Position numbers and translations under genes: made by a program. This document shows, piece after piece, positions 6,986 through 28,980 of a stretch of DNA of 64,000 nt; within the stretch, counting starts at the first letter, position 1, and the number at the start of each line of letters is the position of its first letter. Source of the stretch: Clostridia bacterium (GTDB lineage: Bacteria > Bacillota > Clostridia > Oscillospirales > CAG-272); NCBI GenBank assembly GCA_017502975.1, contig JAFVTV010000038.1:12194-76193 (forward strand). Reading direction: 5' to 3'. A model generated the notes under the pieces. It was not told where the DNA came from. It did no database searches and saw only the letters and a program-made list of their open reading frames with translations.

Positions 6986-7010
6986 GTAGGGGCGATTCAC
7001 GAATCGCCCC
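6986..7010 (+). repeat. REP-like hairpin, class iii (GTAGGGGCGATTCACGAATCGCCCC)
   Basis: GTAG head followed by a 9-10 bp perfect stem, located in intergenic DNA. Related copies lie at 26421-26442 and 26853-26876. Confidence 0.7.
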
Positions 7011-7118
7011 TGCGAGAAACTGTATCATTGTGCACCTTGTTCACACTGTATTATTCCCTTTCCCAAGATTTTTGGGAGTGTGGGAGTGAATGTTTTTTGC
7101 CGTGGGGCAAAAAACAAA

Positions 7119-7156
7119 GAGGGAGAGAGGACTTTTGCAAAAGTCCTCTCTCCCTC
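7119..7156 (-). terminator. 38-nt perfect palindrome; terminator of the acyl-CoA ligase gene
   Basis: GAGGGAGAGAGGACTTTTG|CAAAAGTCCTCTCTCCCTC. On the minus strand it is followed by TTGTTTTTTGCCCC and sits about 20 nt after the stop at 7178. Confidence 0.75.
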
Positions 7157-7177
7157 TCTTATTTTCTCCCTACTCAA

Positions 7178-8872
7178 TCATTTCACCAAGTGGCGTTTGA
7201 TCTTGCGGGAGGTGGTTTTTTCAAACTCGGTATCACGAATCTCAAGCCCCTTGATCTTTTTAAAGGAGGGGAGTTTTTTGTTGAGGTCGGTGAGTTTACC
7301 GTAAATCACCTTGTAAACGGTATCGGCATCGGCGCTCTCACCGAACAGATCCTTGTTCGGGTATACCACGGCGGTCAGCAGCACGGTTTCACCATCGGTA
7401 TCCTTTCTGCCAACCACAACGCTTTCGGCAATCTCCTCAATTTTTTCAAGATATTCCTCGATCTCCTCGGGGAACACGTTTTTGCCGTTTTCCAGCACGA
7501 TGACGGATTTCAGACGACCCGTGATATAGATATAGCCCTCAGCATCCATATAGCCAACGTCCCCCGTGCGATACCAGCCGTCCTCGGTAAATGCCTTGGC
7601 ATTCTCCTCGGGATTGTTGTAGTAGCCAAGCATGACGTTCTCACCCTTGACCTGGATCTCACCCTCTTCAAAGCCCTTGTCGTTGACGTTGCCTGTTTTG
7701 GCAATGCGTGACTCGCAGCAGGGCACAGCAGGGCCGACCGAGCCGGGCTTTGGCGCATAGTAGGGTGCAACGGAAATCAGCGGCGAGCATTCGGTAATGC
7801 CGTAGCCCTCGCAGATCTGGATGCCAAATGCCTCAAAATTCTTTACCATTTCGGGGTTTAGGGGCGCGCCGCCGCAGATGATCTTTTCAAGGCGACCGCC
7901 AAAGGCGGCAAGAACCGAAGAAAAGAGTTTGCGGCGCAGGTCTATGCCGACCTTTCTCATACCGTTTGAAATTTTGATCATGTTGCGCAGTAGTTTTTCC
8001 TTGCCCTTTTTGCGTGCCTCGTCCCAGATCTTTTTGTACATCGTGTTGACGAACAGCGGCACGAGGATAAGACCCGTAGGCTTAAACTCCGCAAAGTTGC
8101 GCATGAGGTGGCGGAGCGTATCGTTGATGCCGATGGAAATGCCGTAGCAAAGGCTGGCAAGCATGATGGCAAGCTCGTAGGTGTGGTGCAGGGGGAGTAC
8201 CGAAACGGTTACGTCGTTTTCGTTGAAGTTTACGGTATTACAAGCCGCATTCACGCACGCGCAAATGTTCTTCTCACAGAGCATAACGCATTTGCTAGAG
8301 CCCGTGGTGCCCGAGGTAAAGAGCATCACGGCAAGCGACTCGGGGTCGCGATCAGGGAGCTGATAGCCATTCTCAAGCGATTTTTCTCCCATTTTAAGGA
8401 TTTCTGCAAAGGGAACGACCTTTTCCGTGGCACAATCCTCTTGGGGCTCCATAGGCACAAAAATACGCAGTGTGGGATGGCGCTCCATTACGGCTGCCAT
8501 TTTTTGATTGAAGCTCGCGGAATAAACGATCGCTTCCGCATCAACGCTTTCAAGTAAGCCCTCGATCTCGCCAATGGCAAGCTCCTTATCCATGGGGATG
8601 ATCACGCCGCCCGCAGCTGTGACCGCAAGGTAGGTGGCAACCCACTCGGGCGAGGTTTCGCCAATGACGGCAATGCGCTTGCCGGCAAGCCCCAATGCAC
8701 AAATGCCTGCCGCTAAGGTGTGTGCCTTGTGTGAGAATTCTGCATAGGTAAGCGCGCCAAAGGTCTTGCCCACGGGAAAGCGAAAGGCATTCTTCTCTCC
8801 CCTTGCCGCAAGCGCGGGGATCATATCCCTAAAGGAGTTCATGGGCGTAAAGATACGCGGCGTTTTTTTCAT
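7178..8872 (-). CDS. AMP-dependent synthetase/ligase (long-chain fatty-acid-CoA ligase-like)
   Basis: 564 aa with the AMP-binding motif LFTSGTTGSSK, plus GYGITE and YRTGD motifs. Confidence 0.85.
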   Translation of the reverse strand: MKKTPRIFTPMNSFRDMIPALAARGEKNAFRFPVGKTFGALTYAEFSHKAHTLAAGICALGLAGKRIAVIGETSPEWVATYLAVTAAGGVIIPMDKELAIGEIEGLLESVDAEAIVYSASFNQKMAAVMERHPTLRIFVPMEPQEDCATEKVVPFAEILKMGEKSLENGYQLPDRDPESLAVMLFTSGTTGSSKCVMLCEKNICACVNAACNTVNFNENDVTVSVLPLHHTYELAIMLASLCYGISIGINDTLRHLMRNFAEFKPTGLILVPLFVNTMYKKIWDEARKKGKEKLLRNMIKISNGMRKVGIDLRRKLFSSVLAAFGGRLEKIICGGAPLNPEMVKNFEAFGIQICEGYGITECSPLISVAPYYAPKPGSVGPAVPCCESRIAKTGNVNDKGFEEGEIQVKGENVMLGYYNNPEENAKAFTEDGWYRTGDVGYMDAEGYIYITGRLKSVIVLENGKNVFPEEIEEYLEKIEEIAESVVVGRKDTDGETVLLTAVVYPNKDLFGESADADTVYKVIYGKLTDLNKKLPSFKKIKGLEIRDTEFEKTTSRKIKRHLVK

Positions 8873-15801: not shown

Positions 15802-17667
15802 TCAATGCACACCAAGGTAAATAAGCAGCACCGAGATGTCGGCAGGGCTTACACCACTGATGCGCGAGGCTTGCCCAACGGTGGCGGGGCGCATGGCGGA
15901 AAGCTTTTGTGCCGCTTCTATTCTAAGACCGGTTATTTTTTGATAGTCAAGGGTGTCGGGGAGCATTCTTGACTCTAACTTTTCATGCCGAGAAACTTCT
16001 ACCATTTGGCGGTTAATGTAGCCTTCATACTTGATTTGAACCTCTGCAGAAAGTGCCGCTTTTTTTGTCAGCTGCGGGCGCGAGGGGTCAAGAGGCCTGA
16101 GAGAATCATAGGTAATGCCGGGGCGGCGCAAAAGATCGGCAAGAGAGATGCCTGTGGAAACGGGGGATTGCCCCAATTCCGTAAGAAACGGGTTGACCAA
16201 CGCGGGGGAAAGGTGCGTGGTATTCAGGCGCGTGATCTCCGCCGCGATGGCGGCTTGCTTTTCTTCAAACGCGGCAAAGTGTGCGTCATCGATCAGCCCA
16301 ACCTTGTGTGCAAGGGGCGTCAGGCGCGCGTCTGCGTTGTCCTGGCGCAGCAGTAAGCGGTATTCCGAGCGTGAGGTCATCATGCGGTAGGGCTCGTTTG
16401 TGCCCTTGATGATAAGATCGTCAACCAAGGTGCCAAGATAAGAGCTGGAACGCGGCAAAATTACAGGGGGCTGCCCCTTTACCTTAAGAGCGGCATTCAT
16501 GCCGGCAAGCAGGCCCTGTGCCGCCGCCTCCTCGTAGCCCGAGGTGCCGTTAAACTGCCCCGCGCCGAAAAGGCCGCCGATCTTTCTGAATTCAAGGGTT
16601 GCGCCAAGCTCCGTGGGGTCACAGCAATCATATTCTATTGCATAGGCGTAGCGCATCATCTCCGCGTGCTCAAAGCCGGGGAGCGTGTGCAGCATTTCTG
16701 CCTGCACGTCGGTAGGCAGAGAGGTTGAAAAGCCTTGCAAGTAAAGCTCATCCGTATCAGCCCCGATCGGCTCAAGAAAGAGTTGGTGGCGCTCCTTGTC
16801 GGCAAAGCGCACGACCTTATCCTCGATCGAGGGGCAATAACGGGGACCTGTACCGTGAATATGGCCGCCATACATGGCGGAACGGGATAGGTTTTCGCGA
16901 ATGACGCGATGTGTTTCTTCGTTGGTATATACAATGTGACAGGGGAGCTGCGAAACACCTGCCATATAGTCCTCGGGGGTGTCGGCGGCATAGGGCAGGG
17001 GGTCAGCCTCGCCCGGCTGCACCTCTAAGCGGTCAAGCGCCACAGATCGGCGGTTGATGCGCGCAGGTGTGCCTGTTTTAAAGCGGCGCAGGGTCACACC
17101 AAGGTCGCTAAGGGCTGCGGAAAGTCCGCGCGAGGGCAAAAATCCGTCGGGGCCGCTTTCGTAATTCACGTCGCCCACAAAAATGCGGCTTTCGAGGTAC
17201 GTGCCTGCGGCAACAATGGCACATTCACATGCCCAAAGCTCGCCAAGATGGGTCATTACCCCGCAAACGTGATGATTTTCATCGGTTTTGACCGAAACGA
17301 TCTCGGCTTGCACAAGGCGCAGATTTTCTGTGCGCTCAAGCACCGATTTCATGTATGCCTGATAGTGCTTGCGGTCTGCCTGCACGCGCTTGGAGTGCAC
17401 GGCGGCACCCTTACCAAGATTCAGGGTGCGCGATTGGAGCGTTACGGCATCTGCCGCGCGACCCATTTCGCCGCCGAGCGCATCGATCTCATACACGAGA
17501 TGCCCCTTTGCCGTGCCCCCGATCGAGGGGTTGCAGGGCATATTGGCGATCGCCTCAAGAGAAATGGTAAATAAAACGGTATCAACGCCCATGCGAGCGC
17601 TTGCCAGCGCCGCCTCGATGCCGGCATGCCCCGCACCGATCACGGCGACCTTGGTAGAAAGCTTCAT
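15802..17667 (-). CDS. mnmG: tRNA uridine 5-carboxymethylaminomethyl modification enzyme MnmG/GidA
   Basis: 621 aa with an N-terminal FAD motif (VAVIGAGHAGIEAALASARMG) and sequence characteristic of GidA throughout. Confidence 0.96.
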   Translation of the reverse strand: MKLSTKVAVIGAGHAGIEAALASARMGVDTVLFTISLEAIANMPCNPSIGGTAKGHLVYEIDALGGEMGRAADAVTLQSRTLNLGKGAAVHSKRVQADRKHYQAYMKSVLERTENLRLVQAEIVSVKTDENHHVCGVMTHLGELWACECAIVAAGTYLESRIFVGDVNYESGPDGFLPSRGLSAALSDLGVTLRRFKTGTPARINRRSVALDRLEVQPGEADPLPYAADTPEDYMAGVSQLPCHIVYTNEETHRVIRENLSRSAMYGGHIHGTGPRYCPSIEDKVVRFADKERHQLFLEPIGADTDELYLQGFSTSLPTDVQAEMLHTLPGFEHAEMMRYAYAIEYDCCDPTELGATLEFRKIGGLFGAGQFNGTSGYEEAAAQGLLAGMNAALKVKGQPPVILPRSSSYLGTLVDDLIIKGTNEPYRMMTSRSEYRLLLRQDNADARLTPLAHKVGLIDDAHFAAFEEKQAAIAAEITRLNTTHLSPALVNPFLTELGQSPVSTGISLADLLRRPGITYDSLRPLDPSRPQLTKKAALSAEVQIKYEGYINRQMVEVSRHEKLESRMLPDTLDYQKITGLRIEAAQKLSAMRPATVGQASRISGVSPADISVLLIYLGVH

Positions 17668-17697
17668 AAGATCTCCTTTAAAGGGTTTAGATGAGAG

Positions 17698-18258
17698 TTA
17701 GCGTGTGGTGTTCGATAAAACGGTGCCGGACGGGTTGTAAAAACGGCACACGGATAGCATTTTTGCGGTTGCCTCGAAATAAAAGATCGCGCGGCGCTTT
17801 TCGCGGTTCTTGTCGTTGCCCAACTCAAAAAGCATAATATAAATATCGGGAGCAGACATGCTTGAAACACCCACAAACTCGCGCTCGGGCGCATAGGCGG
17901 TTGCGCGATCTGCTTCCAGAGGGGCTTCAAGGGGCGCAATACGCACGGCATCCTTTAGCTTCATCTCAAATATCTTGCGGCGCGAACGGTTGCCAAAGAC
18001 CTTTGTAAAGGTGAGTGTGCCTGAGGTAACGGAGTATTCATAATCCACCGAAACATAGCGCCACGTGATAAAAATAATCAGCCAAAGCGAGAGGGGGACA
18101 AAGGCAAGCAGAGGTGCTATAATTTGAGCTTTCATACCAAAAAACAGGACCACCAAGGGATAAAGGCAATAAAACGCGATAAGTCCGATCCGCGCGGCAA
18201 GCCACTTGCCCACTGTTTTTTGTGAAACAACAAATTCATAGGTTAAAAACTCATTCAC
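17698..18258 (-). CDS. Hypothetical membrane protein (two TM segments plus a soluble C-terminal domain)
   Basis: 186-aa ORF with a GTG start after AGGAG. It occupies the position upstream of mnmG where mnmE is usually found. Confidence 0.5.
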   Translation of the reverse strand: MNEFLTYEFVVSQKTVGKWLAARIGLIAFYCLYPLVVLFFGMKAQIIAPLLAFVPLSLWLIIFITWRYVSVDYEYSVTSGTLTFTKVFGNRSRRKIFEMKLKDAVRIAPLEAPLEADRATAYAPEREFVGVSSMSAPDIYIMLFELGNDKNREKRRAIFYFEATAKMLSVCRFYNPSGTVLSNTTR

Positions 18259-18353
18259 AGAGCACTCACTCCTCTCAACGTATTATTACATTTCAGTATA
18301 TCATAAAAAAGTAGATATTTCAATCTTTTTGTAAAGTATCCTCATAAAAGCTC

Positions 18354-18382
18354 TTGCTATTTTTTTAGTAAAGCAGTATAAT
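18354..18382 (+). promoter_or_regulatory. Sigma-A-type promoter for the ACT/UPF0210 operon
   Basis: TTGCTA, 17 nt spacer, TATAAT. Confidence 0.5.
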
Positions 18383-18424
18383 GGTATTATTATATGGATC
18401 GGCAGTGCCGAGAAGGAGAGTAAA

Positions 18425-18694
18425 ATGAAAGCAGTTATCACCGTTACAGGCAAGGATAGCGTTGGCATTATCGCCGCTGTGAGCACCTTTTGTGCAGAGC
18501 ATGGCGCAAACATTACCGAGATCACGCAGAGCGTGCTCAGCGAATATTTTGCAATGATCATGATCGCAGAGATCGACAAGCTCTCGGTGCCCTTTGCGGA
18601 TTTTGCCGCTGATCTTTCGGCAATGGGCAAGGAAAAGGGGCTTGATATCCGCGCGATGCATGAAGATATCTTCAACACCATGCACCACATTTAA
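18425..18694 (+). CDS. ACT domain protein (UPF0237 family)
   Basis: 89 aa beginning MKAVITVTGKDSVGIIAAVS, a typical ACT fold start. It forms the conserved pair with the UPF0210 gene downstream. Confidence 0.85.
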   Translation: MKAVITVTGKDSVGIIAAVSTFCAEHGANITEITQSVLSEYFAMIMIAEIDKLSVPFADFAADLSAMGKEKGLDIRAMHEDIFNTMHHI

Positions 18695-18706
18695 GGAGAG
18701 TGCACC

Positions 18707-20065
18707 ATGCTGAACGTAGCCGATATTCTTGAAACGATCGGGATGATCCGAGAGGAAAATCTCGACATCAGAACCATAACCATGGGCATTTCGCTCCTTG
18801 ACTGTGTGAGCGAGGATGCGAATCGCCTTTGCGACAAGGTGTACGATAAAATAACCAAAACCGCAGAAAAGCTGGTGGATACCGGTGTTTCGATCGAGCG
18901 CGAGTACGGGATTCCGATCGTAAACAAGCGCGTGTCGGTGACCCCCGTGTCGCTGATCGGCGGTGCGATCTCCCCCGAAGGGTACTTAAAATTGGCACAT
19001 ACCCTGCAACGTGCCGCGAAAACGCTGGGTATCAACTTCATTGGCGGATACTCTGCGCTGGTACACAAGGGGATGACGCAAGGGGATAGAAATCTTATTT
19101 CCGTCATTCCCGAGGCACTTGCCCAAACCGAGAACGTATGCTCCTCGGTAAACGTGGCAAGCACAAAGGCGGGCATCAATATGGATGCCATTCGCCTGAT
19201 GGGCAGCACGATCAAGCGTGCGGCTTATCTCACACGTGACAACAATTCGATCGGCTGTGCCAAATTGGTTGTTTTCGCGAACGTCCCCGAGGATAACCCC
19301 TTTATGGCGGGTGCGTTCCACGGTGTTGGCGAGCCCGATAGTGTCATCAACGTGGGCGTTTCCGGCCCCGGCGTGGTGGCAGCGGCGATCCGCCGCGCGG
19401 GCGCGTGCGATCTTTCGCAGCTTGCCGACGTCATTAAGACCACAGCCTTTAAGATCACGCGCGTTGGTCAGCTTGTTGCCAGCGAGGCGGCAAAGCGCCT
19501 TGGCGCGCCCTTTGGTATCATTGATCTTTCCCTTGCGCCCACCCCCGCGATCGGCGACTCGGTTGCCCGCATCCTTGAGGAGATGGGGCTTGAGGTCTGC
19601 GGCGCACACGGCACGACCGCGGCACTTGCCATGCTCAACGATGCCGTAAAGAAGGGCGGCGTTATGGCCTCCTCTCACGTTGGCGGACTTTCGGGTGCGT
19701 TCATTCCCGTTTCTGAGGACGAGGGCATGATCGCCGCGGTAAATGAGGGTGCGCTCTCCATCGAAAAGCTTGAGGCAATGACTGCCGTTTGCTCGGTCGG
19801 CCTTGATATGATCGCTGTGCCCGGCGATACCACCGAGGAGGTCATTTGCGGCATCATTGCCGACGAGATCTCGATCGGTGTGGCAAACACAAAGACGACT
19901 GCCGTGCGCCTGATTCCCGCCTACGGTAAGACTGTTGGGGATAGCGTTAGCTTTGGCGGGCTTTTGGGAACGGCGCCCATTATGCCCCTTCGCACCTATT
20001 CTCCCGCAAAATTCATTTCGCGCGGCGGCAGAATCCCCGCGCCGATCCATAGCCTGAAAAACTAA
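18707..20065 (+). CDS. UPF0210/DUF711 (PFL-like) family protein
   Basis: 452 aa. The N-terminus ([27 protein letters not shown]) matches my recollection of UPF0210, and it pairs with the ACT gene. Confidence 0.85.
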
Positions 20066-24701: not shown

Positions 24702-25514
24702 ATGAAAGAGTTTTTTACAAATCTTTTTAACACGGTGGTCGGCACCGTGACAAGCAACTGGAACAAGATCTTGACGTTTGTATTGGTGCTTGTGATCGGA
24801 TACATCGTAGTGAAGGTGATCGGGCGCATTTTTGCGCGCGCCATGGATCGCTCAAAGCTAAAGGGCGCAACGGGCAACTTCCTCAAGTCGCTTGTAAAGG
24901 TTGCGCTGCTCGCGCTTTACGTCATTATTTTACTGTCCATGCTTGGCGTGGATACGACCTCGCTTGTGGCGATCTTCAGTGTGCTGACGCTCGCTATCTC
25001 GCTTGCCGTGCAGGGCGTGGTATCCAATCTTGCCTCTGGCATTACGCTGGTGGTCACAAAGCCCTTTGAGGAGGGCGATTTTGTGGATATCGGTGGCACC
25101 TCGGGCACGGTTGAAACGATCTCTATTTTCTCAACCAAGCTGAGAACCGGCGACAATAAGGTCATTATTATCCCCAATGGCAACGTCACGGCCGCTAATA
25201 TCACCAATTATTCTACCAAGGGCACGCGCAGACTCGACCTCACGGTTTCGGCGGCATATGGCACAGAGGTGGCAAAGGTAAAGCGTGTGATCCTTGACGT
25301 CATTTCTCGCCATGACGAGATCTTTAAGGACCCCGCACCTATGGTGCGCCTCGCTGAGCACGGCGCCAGCTCCATTGATTTTGCGGTACGTGTGTGGCTT
25401 GATGGCGGCGATTATTGGAACACAAACTTTGATCTGAAGGAAGAAATTTACGATGCGTTTAACGAAAACGGCATCGAGATCCCCTTTCCGCAGATGGACG
25501 TGCATATGGCATAG
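24702..25514 (+). CDS. mscS: Small-conductance mechanosensitive channel (MscS family)
   Basis: 270 aa with three N-terminal TM segments followed by the MscS beta domain (FEEGDFVDIGGTSGTVETISIFSTKLRTGDNKVIIIPN). Confidence 0.88.
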   Translation: MKEFFTNLFNTVVGTVTSNWNKILTFVLVLVIGYIVVKVIGRIFARAMDRSKLKGATGNFLKSLVKVALLALYVIILLSMLGVDTTSLVAIFSVLTLAISLAVQGVVSNLASGITLVVTKPFEEGDFVDIGGTSGTVETISIFSTKLRTGDNKVIIIPNGNVTAANITNYSTKGTRRLDLTVSAAYGTEVAKVKRVILDVISRHDEIFKDPAPMVRLAEHGASSIDFAVRVWLDGGDYWNTNFDLKEEIYDAFNENGIEIPFPQMDVHMA

Positions 25515-25573
25515 CGTGATACTCCAAGCGGAGTATCACGCATCGAGATAAATCCCTTGCGGGATTTTCGATA
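25515..25573. repeat. Two adjacent hairpins at the mscS 3' flank
   Basis: CGTGATACTCC-aagc-GGAGTATCACG (11 bp, perfect), then ATCGAGATAAATCCC-ttgc-GGGATTTTCGAT (imperfect). There is no T-run. They mark the left edge of the AT-rich islet. Confidence 0.5.
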
Positions 25574-25642
25574 TGTTGCTAACGCAACTCGAGTTAAAAA
25601 ACAAAATTCATAACATTAAGGTAGCAGAGGGCGTTTTCAAAT

Positions 25643-26257
25643 ATGAAAAAAACACATAAGCTTCTAATAGTATTGATTGCCCTAACAATTGTTGTTTTTA
25701 CTTGTACTATAATTCATCACAAAATATCCACACATTACACAATGTTTCGTTTTGATCAAAAAACATTGGAGTATGCTTTTTCAGACGAAGTGTCCTCTGC
25801 ACAATCATTTTGCGAAACTAAGGGGGCTAATACTATTCTATATGGTAGATATAAGTATGCTAAAGCAAACGATGATGGTACGCTCACAATTATCGTTGAT
25901 GATGAAACCTTAAGGTTATGGAAAAGTAGCGACTGGACCTTACAAATACTTCAAAGTTTGTTAGAAGAAAAAGAAATAGACATAGGCGTAGATATCGATT
26001 GGTCAGATGATTTTCTTAGCGCCAAACGCAAAGTTAAAGAGTGTGGAGTGGAAATTTCAGAGGATTATTCTTTAATCACTCAGGGTCCCGGTGATGATGG
26101 TTCATTTTACACTTTCCTATTGCCGGCATGTGTTTATATGCAAATTTTTGAAGGGAAGCAGGTTGGTGAAATAAAAGTTACTTATGTAGAAGTCGATGAA
26201 AAAGGCAATATTATTGATGAAATAAATTGGGAACTTGATTCAAGCAATAAATCATAA
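25643..26257 (+). CDS. Hypothetical membrane-anchored protein (AT-rich islet gene 1)
   Basis: 204-aa ORF with an N-terminal TM segment (LLIVLIALTIVVFTCTII). Composition is strikingly AT-rich compared with the flanks. I recognise no family. Confidence 0.55.
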   Translation: MKKTHKLLIVLIALTIVVFTCTIIHHKISTHYTMFRFDQKTLEYAFSDEVSSAQSFCETKGANTILYGRYKYAKANDDGTLTIIVDDETLRLWKSSDWTLQILQSLLEEKEIDIGVDIDWSDDFLSAKRKVKECGVEISEDYSLITQGPGDDGSFYTFLLPACVYMQIFEGKQVGEIKVTYVEVDEKGNIIDEINWELDSSNKS

Positions 26258-26420
26258 TTGTTTCAGCCGCGCCTTTGGGTACAGTGATTAAATCACATTC
26301 ATCATTCAAGTTTTAATTGTGAGGTGTTGGCTATGGTTAGATCAAAAACAGCAAAAACCCTCATTAAAGTATTATTGATATCTTTTCTTGCCTTGTTTTC
26401 ATTGCCCATCATTTTTTCGG

Positions 26421-26483
26421 GTGCTTCGTGAAGCGCCCCTACGGTACGAAAAAGGAGCGGGGCGTCGAGGCGCCGCCCCCTAC
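26421..26483 (-). repeat. Two REP-like hairpins (class iii and class ii), minus orientation
   Basis: 26421-26442 is the reverse complement of GTAGGGGCGCTTCACGAAGCAC. 26457-26483 is the exact reverse complement of the 27-mer at 9109-9135. Confidence 0.75.
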
Positions 26484-26509
26484 TTACATAGCAAACACGG
26501 AGGCGTGAA

Positions 26510-26809
26510 ATGAAGCTTGAAAAAATCAGATTCTGCCGATGCCCAAAATGCCATAAACACGGTATACCGGCATTCAAAAAAATAGGTCACCGCTACAACC
26601 CCGAAGTGCAATGTAAATATTGCAGTGTTAAATTTTCAGTAAATTTTGCACTATCGCTCATTATAAAAATATTTATTCCTATATTTTGGGGTGCTATTGG
26701 ATTGCTTTTCACCACTTATATCCTGGAAATACCCTTTCCTTTTTGGTGCGCTTTGGCAATCATAAGCCTGTTCGTTTTTGAATATTTTTGCCCAATGGAA
26801 GAGAGGTAA
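26510..26809 (+). CDS. Hypothetical zinc-ribbon membrane protein (AT-rich islet gene 2)
   Basis: 99 aa with CxxC pairs (CRCPKC ... CKYC) followed by two TM segments. Composition is AT-rich. Confidence 0.5.
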   Translation: MKLEKIRFCRCPKCHKHGIPAFKKIGHRYNPEVQCKYCSVKFSVNFALSLIIKIFIPIFWGAIGLLFTTYILEIPFPFWCALAIISLFVFEYFCPMEER

Positions 26810-26852
26810 AAGTTTGTTATCGAGGTCTTTTTCGCTTTGTTGGCATACTCTT

Positions 26853-26876
26853 GTAGGGGCGTTTCAAGAAACGCCC
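26853..26876 (+). repeat. REP-like hairpin, class iii (GTAGGGGCGTTTCAAGAAACGCCC)
   Basis: GTAG head plus an 8-9 bp stem, followed by GTAC. Confidence 0.7.
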
Positions 26877-26885
26877 GTACGGTAA

Positions 26886-26924
26886 AAAAAGGAGAGAGAA
26901 CATTTTATGTTCTCTCTCCTTTTT
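26886..26924. terminator. Bidirectional terminator (probable ancestral aspS terminator)
   Basis: AAAAAGGAGAGAGAACA-tttta-TGTTCTCTCTCCTTTTT, with A/T runs on both sides. It lies about 55 nt downstream of the orphan aspS 3' end. Confidence 0.7.
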
Positions 26925-26978
26925 AATCATGCTTTGCGTTAATGCAAGCTGCGGTTGGGTTTAAAAATTGTGCACCGT

Positions 26979-27017
26979 TTATGCTTCTTCGACCACGGCG
27001 ATGCTGAGATCGGCAAG
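26979..27017 (-). pseudogene. Orphan fragment of an aspS 3' end (12 codons plus stop)
   Basis: The minus strand reads LADLSIAVVEEA*. The live aspS C-terminus is LADLAIAVIDESEK*. My count is 9 of 12 aa and 26 of 36 nt identical. Homology stops exactly where a truncated REP head (GTAGGGA) begins. Confidence 0.65.
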
Positions 27018-27056
27018 TCCCTACAAAAAACAACAGGAATCAAATTCACTCCAAAA

Positions 27057-27083
27057 CGGACAGTCGGGGACGCCTGTCCCTAC
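27057..27083 (-). repeat. REP-like hairpin, class i
   Basis: Reverse complement of GTAGGGACAGGCGTCCCCGACTGTCCG, one substitution from the copies inside the RAYT-like gene. A truncated head copy lies at 27018-27024. Confidence 0.75.
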
Positions 27084-27140
27084 AAAAAAACAAGAATGTA
27101 AAATTGCATTTTTGGGATAGGGCATATGCTCAAAAATGAA

Positions 27141-27166
27141 ATCCCCCCCGCTATGCGGGGGGAGAT
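27141..27166 (-). terminator. Current aspS terminator
   Basis: On the minus strand: TCCCCCCGC-atag-CGGGGGGGA followed by TTTCATTTTT, about 20 nt after the stop at 27184. Confidence 0.7.
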
Positions 27167-27183
27167 TACTATGATAATTGGTT

Positions 27184-28980
27184 TTATTTTTCGCTTTCGT
27201 CGATTACGGCAATGGCAAGGTCGGCAAGCGCCTTGGGCTCTGCGGGAGCAGGGCAGCCCGACATCAGCTCGCTTGCGTTTTGCACCTTGGGGAAGGCAAT
27301 GACGTCGCGCAACGAATCTGCACCTGCCATGACCATGGCAAGGCGGTCAAGACCCATACCGGAGCCGCCGTGGGGCGGCGCGCCGTACTTGTAGGCATCC
27401 ACAAGGAAGCCAAACTTCTTTTCAATGTCCTCGGCAGTAAGCCCCAAGGCATTAAACATCTTTTCCTGCAGCTGCCAATCGGTAATGCGGATCGAGCCCG
27501 AAAGGAGCTCGGTGCCGTTGAGGACCATATCGTATGCCTTGGCACGCACCTTGCCGGGGTCGGATTCAAGGTAGGGTAGGCACTCCTCCATGGGCATGGT
27601 AAAGGGGTGATGCATCGCATCCCAAGCACCGGTTTCCTCGTTCCACTCAAAGAAGGGGAATTCGGTGATCCAAAGGAAGTTGTACTGCCCCTCGGGGATC
27701 AGCGCAAGCTTTTTGACAAGGAGGTTGCGCAGTGCACCAAGGGTGGGGAGCACCACGCGGTTTTTATCGGCAACGATAAGTGCAACGTCGCCTTTTTCCA
27801 TACCAAGTGCCGCGATCACAGCGCTTTGCTCGTCGGGCGTGAGGAATTTTGCAAAGGACATATTGGGTGCATCATCGACCCAGCGAATGTAAGCAAGACC
27901 CTTGGCGCCAATGCCCTTGGCATGCTCGGTCAGCTTGTCGATCTCCTTGCGCGAGAGGGTCGCCGCCGCGCCCTTGGCTACAATGCCGCGCACGCTGCCG
28001 CCTGCGGTGATCGCACCGCTAAAGACGGAGAAGCCGCAATCCTTTACAACGGGGGAGATATCCTTAATTTCCATACCAAAGCGCGTGTCGGGCTTGTCGC
28101 TACCAAAGCGCTCCATTGCCTCGGCATAGGTCATGCGCGCAAACGGCGTTTTCAGGGTGACACCCAAAAGCTCGCGGAAGGCACGTACGATAAAGCCCTC
28201 GTTCATCTCCATGATATCCTCTGCGGTTGCAAAGGACATTTCAAGGTCGATCTGTGTAAATTCGGGCTGGCGGTCTGCACGCAGATCCTCATCACGGAAG
28301 CAACGCGCAAGCTGAATGTAGCGGTCAAACCCAGAAAGCATCAAAAGCTGCTTGTAGATCTGGGGGGATTGGGGCAGGGCATAAAAGCTGCCCTTGTGTA
28401 CGCGGGAGGGCACCAGATAATCGCGCGCACCCTCGGGGGTCGCCTTGATCATCATGGGTGTTTCAATTTCCATGAACCCGTTTTCAAAATAATACTCGCG
28501 TGCAATGCGCGCAAGCTCGTGGCGCATGCGGATATTTTTCTGTAGCTCGGGGCGTCTTAAGTCAAGATAACGGTATTTGAGTGCCGTTTCATCCTTCACG
28601 CGCTTGGTATCAGAAACCTCAAAGGGAGGTGTTTGCGCGGCGGAAAGGATCTTCATTTCGGTGACATACACCTCAACCTTGCCTGTGGGGAGGTTGGGGT
28701 TTACAGCACCCTCGCCACGGGCGCGCACGGTGCCGTGCACGGCAACAACGTACTCGGCGCGGCAGGAAAATGCCTTTTCGAATACCGTTTTGGGGGTAGT
28801 GTCATCAAAAGCAAGCTGCAAAAGACCCGTGCGGTCGCGCAGATCGATGAAAATGAGTGCGCCAAGGTCGCGCTGGCGCTGCACCCAACCCATAACCGAT
28901 ACCGTTTTGCCGATATCCTGCTCGGAAAGGATGCCGCAGTAATGTGTTCTTTTGTCCTGTGCGGTTAGAAATTCAGCCAT
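27184..28980 (-). CDS. aspS: Aspartyl-tRNA synthetase
   Basis: 598 aa with an N-terminal OB anticodon-binding domain, class II motifs (FRDEDLRADRQPEFTQID; GGSGMGLDRL) and a GAD insertion. Confidence 0.96.
   Translation of the reverse strand: MAEFLTAQDKRTHYCGILSEQDIGKTVSVMGWVQRQRDLGALIFIDLRDRTGLLQLAFDDTTPKTVFEKAFSCRAEYVVAVHGTVRARGEGAVNPNLPTGKVEVYVTEMKILSAAQTPPFEVSDTKRVKDETALKYRYLDLRRPELQKNIRMRHELARIAREYYFENGFMEIETPMMIKATPEGARDYLVPSRVHKGSFYALPQSPQIYKQLLMLSGFDRYIQLARCFRDEDLRADRQPEFTQIDLEMSFATAEDIMEMNEGFIVRAFRELLGVTLKTPFARMTYAEAMERFGSDKPDTRFGMEIKDISPVVKDCGFSVFSGAITAGGSVRGIVAKGAAATLSRKEIDKLTEHAKGIGAKGLAYIRWVDDAPNMSFAKFLTPDEQSAVIAALGMEKGDVALIVADKNRVVLPTLGALRNLLVKKLALIPEGQYNFLWITEFPFFEWNEETGAWDAMHHPFTMPMEECLPYLESDPGKVRAKAYDMVLNGTELLSGSIRITDWQLQEKMFNALGLTAEDIEKKFGFLVDAYKYGAPPHGGSGMGLDRLAMVMAGADSLRDVIAFPKVQNASELMSGCPAPAEPKALADLAIAVIDESEK

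Follow-up and report, generated by a model that had tools for sequence, protein, structure and literature searches.

The window, by which is meant the whole 64,000 nt stretch of DNA analysed here, raises the question of how a housekeeping gene can come to be followed by a second copy of its own 3′ end, and of which of the two ends is the native one. The gene concerned is aspS (minus strand, 27184–28980; 598 aa), and the second end is an orphan of 12 codons and a TAA (minus strand, 26979–27017), which reads CTTGCCGATCTCAGCATCGCCGTGGTCGAAGAAGCATAA from 27017 to 26979 and would encode LADLSIAVVEEA-stop. It is not translatable where it stands, as a TAG is found two codons upstream, inside the head (GTAGGG) of a REP, and there is no start codon. 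The initial annotation saw in this orphan the resident terminus of aspS, displaced by a newcomer end that had arrived either through allelic replacement with foreign DNA or with an element integrating into the gene.

That the orphan is an aspS end, at the position and with the sequence originally given, is borne out by comparison within the genus. The live aspS tail of a congener (G003; LADLGIAVVEEE-stop) is identical to it, in frame, at 34 of 39 nt, and agrees with it in codon count and stop position (E 6e-7 in a genus search). Across 29 aspS tails of the genus, the number of identities to the orphan ranges from 21 to 34, with the adjacent live tail at 27, and the positions at which the orphan departs from real aspS tails are mainly third codon positions. 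Because of this pattern of change, and of the match to G003, the 39 nt segment is a real aspS 3′ end from another lineage.

When the two tails within the window are set against each other, they share 8 of 12 residues and 25 of 36 nt, in each case one fewer than first counted (9 and 26, respectively). Both lie in the same orientation, 166 nt apart, and both open with an identical 8 nt stretch, CTTGCCGA, as direct repeats. The significance of the resemblance had been left to a later check, and on both strands of the 1.66 Mb genome the only 39-mers that match the orphan at 27 or more of 39 positions are the orphan itself and the adjacent live tail. With regard to other genes, a comparison of each gene tail with its own 800 nt downstream places aspS in a tie for fourth to sixth among 1712 long ORFs under +1/−1 scoring; under +1/−2 scoring, in the same type of control, the similarity of live tail and orphan is unremarkable among ORF tails. 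Four independent assemblies, made from other samples, have the identical structure, and an assembly artefact is thereby ruled out.

Of the two ends, it is the live one that is native to the clade. Its tail (27184–27228, LADLAIAVIDESEK-stop) closes with IDESEK. The same tail is found in the closest genome (G044) and in L117, a third haplotype, neither of which has the orphan, and in two further relatives (G008 and G051) aspS ends with IEESEK. In all of these, as in the genome under study (G000), the ESEK tail directly abuts aspS. The L117 haplotype combines an aspS tail of the G000 type with a downstream region of the G008 type. Along the length of the gene, the identity of aspS to that of G008 runs from 83 to 96 % without a mosaic break, and a mosaic test covering aspS, the convergent gene mscS and their flanks, using G008 and G044 for comparison, revealed no discontinuity except four SNPs at the end of mscS. 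Since the tails are shared by relatives that have no orphan, and since no mosaic break is seen, the live tail and the REP element behind it are ancestral, and the 1.5 kb block that follows is new. The polarity originally proposed is probably wrong, the live tail being ancestral in the clade and the orphan a foreign piece. Thus, the alignment with relatives that had been suggested as a check speaks for the live end and not for a displaced resident, whilst the accompanying proposal of a horizontal replacement of aspS does not fit a gene that is non-mosaic and stands in the same relationship to G008 and G044 as its flanks.

The closest species representative, G044, is 94–96 % identical at the nucleotide level on both flanks and is collinear with G000 up to 25508 and again from 27017. 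Read from aspS, it possesses the IDESEK-stop tail, the same 21 nt spacer, a module that will be referred to as module A, REP1, a second T-run, REP2, 165 bp of further sequence and, finally, the mscS end (HMKQ-stop). It is these 165 bp of G044 (C14:36315-36479) that are replaced in G000 by a specific block of 1508 bp (25509–27016), termed the islet, of which the orphan forms the right end. G044 is not a deletion derivative, because, one short REP match aside, nothing in its 165 bp recurs in the G000 block. The islet is arranged as module L, ORF204, two REPs, ORF99, a further REP, a terminator and the orphan. Its two ORFs have a GC content of 31–38 %, compared with 51–63 % in the flanking genes, and a DNA search of 39 other genomes of the genus did not find the block. 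It is compositionally foreign, and is on this evidence taken to be imported.

The convergent arrangement of mscS and aspS is common in the genus, and at least four states of the interval between them can be distinguished. These are 60 bp (G021), 636 bp with a small zinc-finger gene (G008, which is 86–89 % identical to G000 on both flanks, and L117), the REP element plus 165 bp (G044) and the REP element plus the 1.5 kb islet (G000). As all of these states end at the same aspS stop, the interval is viewed as a replacement hot spot.

The resident sequence that lies immediately downstream of aspS is a repeated element (minus strand, 27039–27162) consisting of module A, i.e. a G+C-rich hairpin with ~45 nt of flanking sequence, and then a REP preceded by a T-run (REP1, 27057–27083). 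The element is 88 % identical to a second copy in G000 (C5:19881-20005), has a partial match on C34 and occupies the same position in G044. Multiple copies of module A exist in the genus, and the REP at 27057–27083 has more than a dozen copies in G000 and many more across the genus. The hairpin of module A (~27143–27162) folds at −12.7 kcal/mol (z −4.9) and serves as the terminator of live aspS. A strong, bidirectional terminator hairpin (26886–26924; −17.9 kcal/mol, z −9.8) is located between ORF99 and the orphan, and was presumably shared by aspS and ORF99 in the donor. The islet also contains, at 26853–26882 on the plus strand, a REP of the GTAGGGG class, with copies elsewhere in the group, in other genera and other genomes. 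The initial annotation had listed the two hairpins and the complete REP as separate features, and all are indeed present, with both hairpins being strong. It had also listed a direct repeat, CAA-A6/7-GTAGGGA, as part of the rearrangement; the repeat exists, but it is the tandem REP doublet already found in G044 rather than a rearrangement product. Rfam offers no family for the repeated element, the orphan or module L, with sub-threshold hairpin matches only. Copies of module A (hairpin CCCCGCATAGCGGGG plus ~45 nt) are repeatedly found 50–190 nt from contig ends (G043, G047, G009 and others), and the module may lie at the edge of a larger multi-copy element at which assemblies break.

The right junction of the islet is situated within REP2. 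Whilst G044 has this REP as an intact 9 bp hairpin, GTAGGGAC-AGGC-GTCCCTAC, G000 keeps only the first arm and its T-rich flank (minus strand, 27017–27035), and turns to the orphan directly after GTAGGGAC, where G044 continues with AGGCGTCCCTAC. Homology between the two genomes resumes at 27017. The junction, GTAGGGA(C)/TTGCC, has one shared or ambiguous base, at 27017, which is common to the GTAGGGAC arm and to the CTT that is the first codon of the orphan, and it falls exactly where, in the REP2 of G044, the first arm gives way to the loop. It had been noted from the outset that the similarity to aspS stops at the REP head GTAGGGA (27018–27024), and that this ties a REP to an illegitimate rearrangement junction. 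Both points hold, and the right joint is, as defined by the comparison with G044, illegitimate (1 nt of microhomology) and inside a REP. A joint with the repeated element through 10 nt of microhomology (C[CT]T[GA]CCGATC in the copies on C5 and C34) was considered and dropped, as the resident site in G044 continues with AGGCGTCCCTAC, and joints at two other microhomologies close by (CGATCTC and CGCCT) would have given products different from the one observed.

At the opposite end, mscS (plus strand, 24702–25514) is intact up to the ATG codon at 25506–25508. Homology to G044 ends at 25508, and there module L begins, its first bases, (G)CATAG, forming the new mscS stop. The altered tail of G000 (DVHMA-stop) is derived, the corresponding tails in G044, G008 and G021 being HMKQ, HVKQ and HLKQ, respectively. 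Module L (plus strand, 25508–25592) is the truncated terminus of a multi-hairpin repeat family, copies of which in G005, G045, G009, G010 and G042 start at (G)CATAGCG. In full, members of this family (L014-L019, from G005, G045, G009, G042, G010 and G049) are long, TCGATAT-rich repeats with multiple hairpins, of which G000 has the first ~85 nt. Within the first hairpin of the copies, changes on one arm are paired with changes on the other (GCGTGATACTC/GAGTATCACGC, GCGTGTTATCC/GGAGAACACGC and GCGTAGTGCCC/GGACACTACGC), which suggests that module L is under structural constraint.

Compared with G044 and G008, the last 22 nt of mscS have four synonymous changes that are derived (25487, 25493, 25499 and 25505), where ~0.8 would be expected from 28 differences over 807 nt (Poisson P ~0.008). 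This suggests that the end of mscS is a short donor tract and hence that a homologous crossover took place within the gene. Strain L026 shares only the change at 25505, which is the nearest to the junction, and module L starts 3–4 nt after this last change. Given that L026 has just one of the four, the left joint, too, may be illegitimate, or a later conversion may have trimmed that end.

With regard to its cargo, the islet has only two ORFs, of 204 and 99 aa, neither of which has an above-threshold Pfam match, and no integrase or recombinase was found within it. ORF204 (plus strand, 25643–26257) encodes an N-terminally anchored accessory protein, homologues of which, 57–77 % identical, exist in other uncultured Clostridia and occur in scattered, unrelated contexts. 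In two independent contexts (L112:3533-5621, L115:1-1932 and L113), homologues that are 71–75 % identical lie 23–46 nt downstream of orphan RHS-repeat fragments, and these fragments are 65 % identical between two contigs. A search for an RHS-repeat fragment partner of ORF204 in G000 did not find one. The layout of these homologues, following an RHS fragment, is that of a toxin C-terminus and then an immunity gene. ORF204 itself may be a putative orphan immunity-type gene, and such a role, if true, would provide a selective reason for import of the islet. A Pfam match of ORF204 to PF02258 (18 bits against a cut-off of 27) was treated as noise. None of the contexts examined for relatives of ORF204 is beside aspS. 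In one of them (L116, GCA_052833805.1, 2109-5615), a homologue with 62 % identity stands at the end of the rpoA-rplQ operon, i.e. at the 3′ edge of a housekeeping block, and ~1.3 kb downstream of a gene for a large serine recombinase. The second protein, ORF99 (plus strand, 26510–26809), is small, has a CxxC..CxxC motif and hydrophobic segments, and is without a Pfam family; an identical protein in the same arrangement is present in four other assemblies.

The reading favoured here, with a probability of about 0.55, is a single import of the accessory islet from an unsampled congener in which it also lay beside aspS, with the join on the aspS side being illegitimate and resembling homology-facilitated illegitimate recombination (HFIR). 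Prior to this event, the recipient would have resembled G044, i.e. mscS (ending KQ), 165 bp, an intact REP2, REP1, module A and convergent aspS (ending IDESEK), and the donor would have been an unsampled member of the genus-level group with the islet between mscS and aspS. The incoming DNA would have been linear, starting at the end of donor mscS and reaching 39 nt into donor aspS. Its mscS side could have recombined within or beside the last codons of the gene. Its aspS side, with only 39 nt at ~70 % homology, would have been joined illegitimately, via 1 nt of microhomology, where the first arm of REP2 meets the loop, 166 nt downstream of the stop of resident aspS, with deletion of the intervening 165 bp. 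The live aspS would at no point have been interrupted, and would have kept its native tail together with the module A hairpin as its terminator. The orphan itself supports the proposed synteny of the donor, as it is in the orientation of aspS with a terminator still 55 nt away.

Candidates for this donor were sought using a degenerate codon pattern for LADLSIAVVEEA-stop, applied to genomes and metagenome contigs, and a C-terminal protein search. An aspS encoding this tail was found neither in 185,579 species genomes, nor in JGI metagenome contigs, nor among the best 120 matches of a search of 5.8 billion proteins, and the nearest nucleotide match to the orphan is that of G003 (34/39). AspS proteins with VVEEE or VVEE tails were rejected as donors, being only ~80 % identical, with different synteny and a tail identity of 23–29 nt. 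A second AspRS-like gene in G000 (C28:~17500-19900), which has an open frame of ~707 aa and is 54 % identical in the C-terminal core, was also rejected as a source, its C-terminus being unrelated to the orphan; the C-terminal extension of this protein (containing EKIADLARLSLSGEEKARV) may be GatC-like. As for the route by which DNA might have entered, the genome has an intact ComEC gene, which is a weak sign of natural transformation, given that the ComEC family also matches 10 of 14 control genomes.

Subsequent to its import, the islet, complete with its junction, has spread among diverged lineages by ordinary homologous recombination. Between G000 and L026, positions 25509–27110 differ by 0.5 %, compared with 5.6 % for aspS and 1.2–4.3 % for the other flanks, and G000, L026 and G044 form a mosaic species complex. 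The difference between 0.5 and 5.6 % points to recent homologous exchange, in which the islet and its junction moved from lineage to lineage and the right crossover fell inside the REP element.

A rather unlikely alternative to the single import divides the history into two steps. A clean double homologous crossover, in mscS and aspS, would have brought in the islet along with the VVEEA-stop tail of the donor. Later, homologous recombination in aspS with DNA from a G044-like sibling, carrying the gene and its native tail, module A, REP1 and the REP2 first arm, would have restored the native tail, the far end of this DNA being joined illegitimately at codon L587 of the resident gene and the donor-type tail left as an orphan. 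This gives exactly the product observed, and retains the polarity of the initial annotation. Cassette swapping at the site is, moreover, real, with three haplotypes having the same aspS tail and the islet itself having moved homologously, and a REP hairpin at an incoming single-strand end is a plausible stopping point. It does, however, require an extra event, it places the illegitimate joint inside a region that is still homologous, and it yields a duplication rather than the usual deletion. In addition, an intermediate with a live VVEEA-stop tail was not found in any of the collections searched, and aspS has no residual donor tract. Much harder to sustain is a site-specific integrative element that inserted at the aspS 3′ end, supplied a replacement end (attL/attR) and was later reduced to ~166 bp. 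The two tails are direct repeats that open with the same 8 nt (CTTGCCGA), as such an element would have it, but the live tail is identical in relatives that have neither orphan nor islet, and so no substitute end has been supplied. Furthermore, the 166 bp between the tails are resident and common to G044, no integrase exists in or near the block, and the foreign block is outside the repeat pair and not between its members. The integrating element of the initial annotation is thus already contradicted, the live tail predating the event.

Least credible is the suggestion that the orphan resembles aspS by chance, or that it forms part of the repeated element and is no relic of aspS. The full element copies on C5 and C34 do have CCTGCCGATC or CTTACCGATC at a comparable position, similar to the first 10 nt of the orphan, and the likeness of live tail and orphan is not outstanding under +1/−2 scoring. 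Against this stand the in-frame agreement with a real aspS tail at 34 of 39 nt, with its stop at the same codon, the adjacent live tail as the unique best match in the genome, and the element copy at the same site in G044, which continues differently; as the sequences stand, this possibility is already refuted. Improbable, albeit less so, is a causal role for REP2, in which the REP-associated tyrosine transposase (RAYT) or hairpin processing would have cut the arm/loop boundary and joined foreign or excised DNA to it. The breakpoint and the end of the GTAGGGAC arm are at precisely the same base, Y1_Tnp (PF01797) proteins are encoded above the curated cut-off (C47:569-882, in two frames, and C5:15339-15572), and this REP family is abundant across the genus. 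This is, however, a single junction and one positional coincidence, two other G000/G044 breakpoints within 18–36 kb are without a REP at their edges, and what the imported DNA contributes to the joint is a gene tail, and not a REP or hairpin. Nor was another orphan gene end found at a GTAGGG head in the genome. The initial annotation had looked to further gene-end duplications beside REP heads, and genome-wide scans for other orphan gene ends yielded tandem repeats, tandem paralogues and tRNA-like duplications alone, and nothing beside a GTAGGG head. In its broader form, that REP hairpins or RAYT are preferred entry points for foreign DNA, REP2 having been opened at its arm/loop boundary and a linear fragment ligated to it, the idea is accorded little probability; if true, accessory (immunity-like) islets would be captured at the REP doublets that follow housekeeping genes.

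Some features of the wider genome were recorded alongside these analyses. The Y1_Tnp (RAYT/IS200-like) match at C47:569-882 is split over two frames, by a frameshift or an insertion inside the gene. Tandem duplications of ~150 nt with tRNA-like 3′ ends (GGAGAATCGAACTCC) occur at C43:~7000-7400, near C43:7103, and a tandem repeat of ~100 nt is found at C28:~74600-74775, near C28:74775, both having come up when the genome was scanned for orphan ends.

If a single import with an illegitimate join on the aspS side is indeed what took place, then the scar is a base-resolved natural example of a small islet entering, in uncultured gut Clostridia, a conserved pair of convergent genes. It would record the gene order of the donor (islet beside aspS), and would demonstrate that the end of a housekeeping gene can hitch-hike as a 39 nt fossil. 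Its illegitimate joint is placed exactly at the boundary of a REP hairpin, and any wider value would depend on breakpoints recurring at REP boundaries. For annotation, the locus serves as a warning that such relics do not prove that the adjacent live gene has been replaced.

Amongst the closest known systems is HFIR, the outcome of which, as described in PMC5361080 and PMC3240628, is an insertion coupled to a deletion, with one illegitimate end. The studies cited there (de Vries & Wackernagel 2002; Prudhomme et al. 2002; Meier & Wackernagel 2003) concern Acinetobacter baylyi, Streptococcus pneumoniae and Pseudomonas stutzeri. The aspS locus is similar in that 1508 bp of foreign DNA have come in and 165 bp of recipient DNA have been deleted, with one end at or in a homologous gene (mscS) and the other joined without homology, via 1 nt shared. 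It differs in being deduced by comparative genomics in an uncultured gut Clostridia lineage rather than directly observed, in having a homologous anchor suggested only by a short SNP tract, in its microhomology of 1 nt, where experimental HFIR joints usually have 3–10 nt, and in the position of its illegitimate joint within a REP hairpin.

Displacement of C-termini, leaving orphan 3′ ends, is also known from rhs, CDI and T6SS effector loci (Jackson et al. 2009, PMC2935791; Kirchberger et al. 2017, PMC5361080). As in those loci, the orphan 3′ end is found shortly downstream of the live end, beside small immunity-like genes, and is attributed to one-sided illegitimate recombination. The polarity is the reverse, however: whilst the live end of the effector genes is the newcomer and the orphan the displaced resident, at aspS the live end is ancestral and the orphan most probably donor DNA borne by the islet, the ESEK tail being present in G000, G044, L117, G008 and G051, and the orphan being nearest to the distant G003. 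The two-step history considered above would partly restore this feature of displacement. The genes, too, are of different kinds, the effectors being polymorphic toxins whose ends diversify under selection, and aspS a housekeeping gene.

A duplicated 3′ end of the target gene (attL/attR) is also left by integrative elements, for instance tRNA-gene islands and SCCmec at rlmH, and the present locus resembles them in having two direct copies of a gene 3′ end, one live and one orphan. Unlike these elements, it has no integrase, its block is not between the copies, and its live end is not element-borne. The REPs themselves are similar to REP/BIME of the Escherichia coli type, being GTAG-headed imperfect palindromes in tandem or inverted groups, intergenic and downstream of genes, in a genome with a Y1 transposase gene; here, unlike in REP/BIME with RAYT, the REP is the site of a breakpoint only, and catalysis of the join by REP/RAYT is putative. 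Set beside these systems, the scar at aspS is a real but ordinary recombination scar, which represents another instance of a known process rather than a new system.
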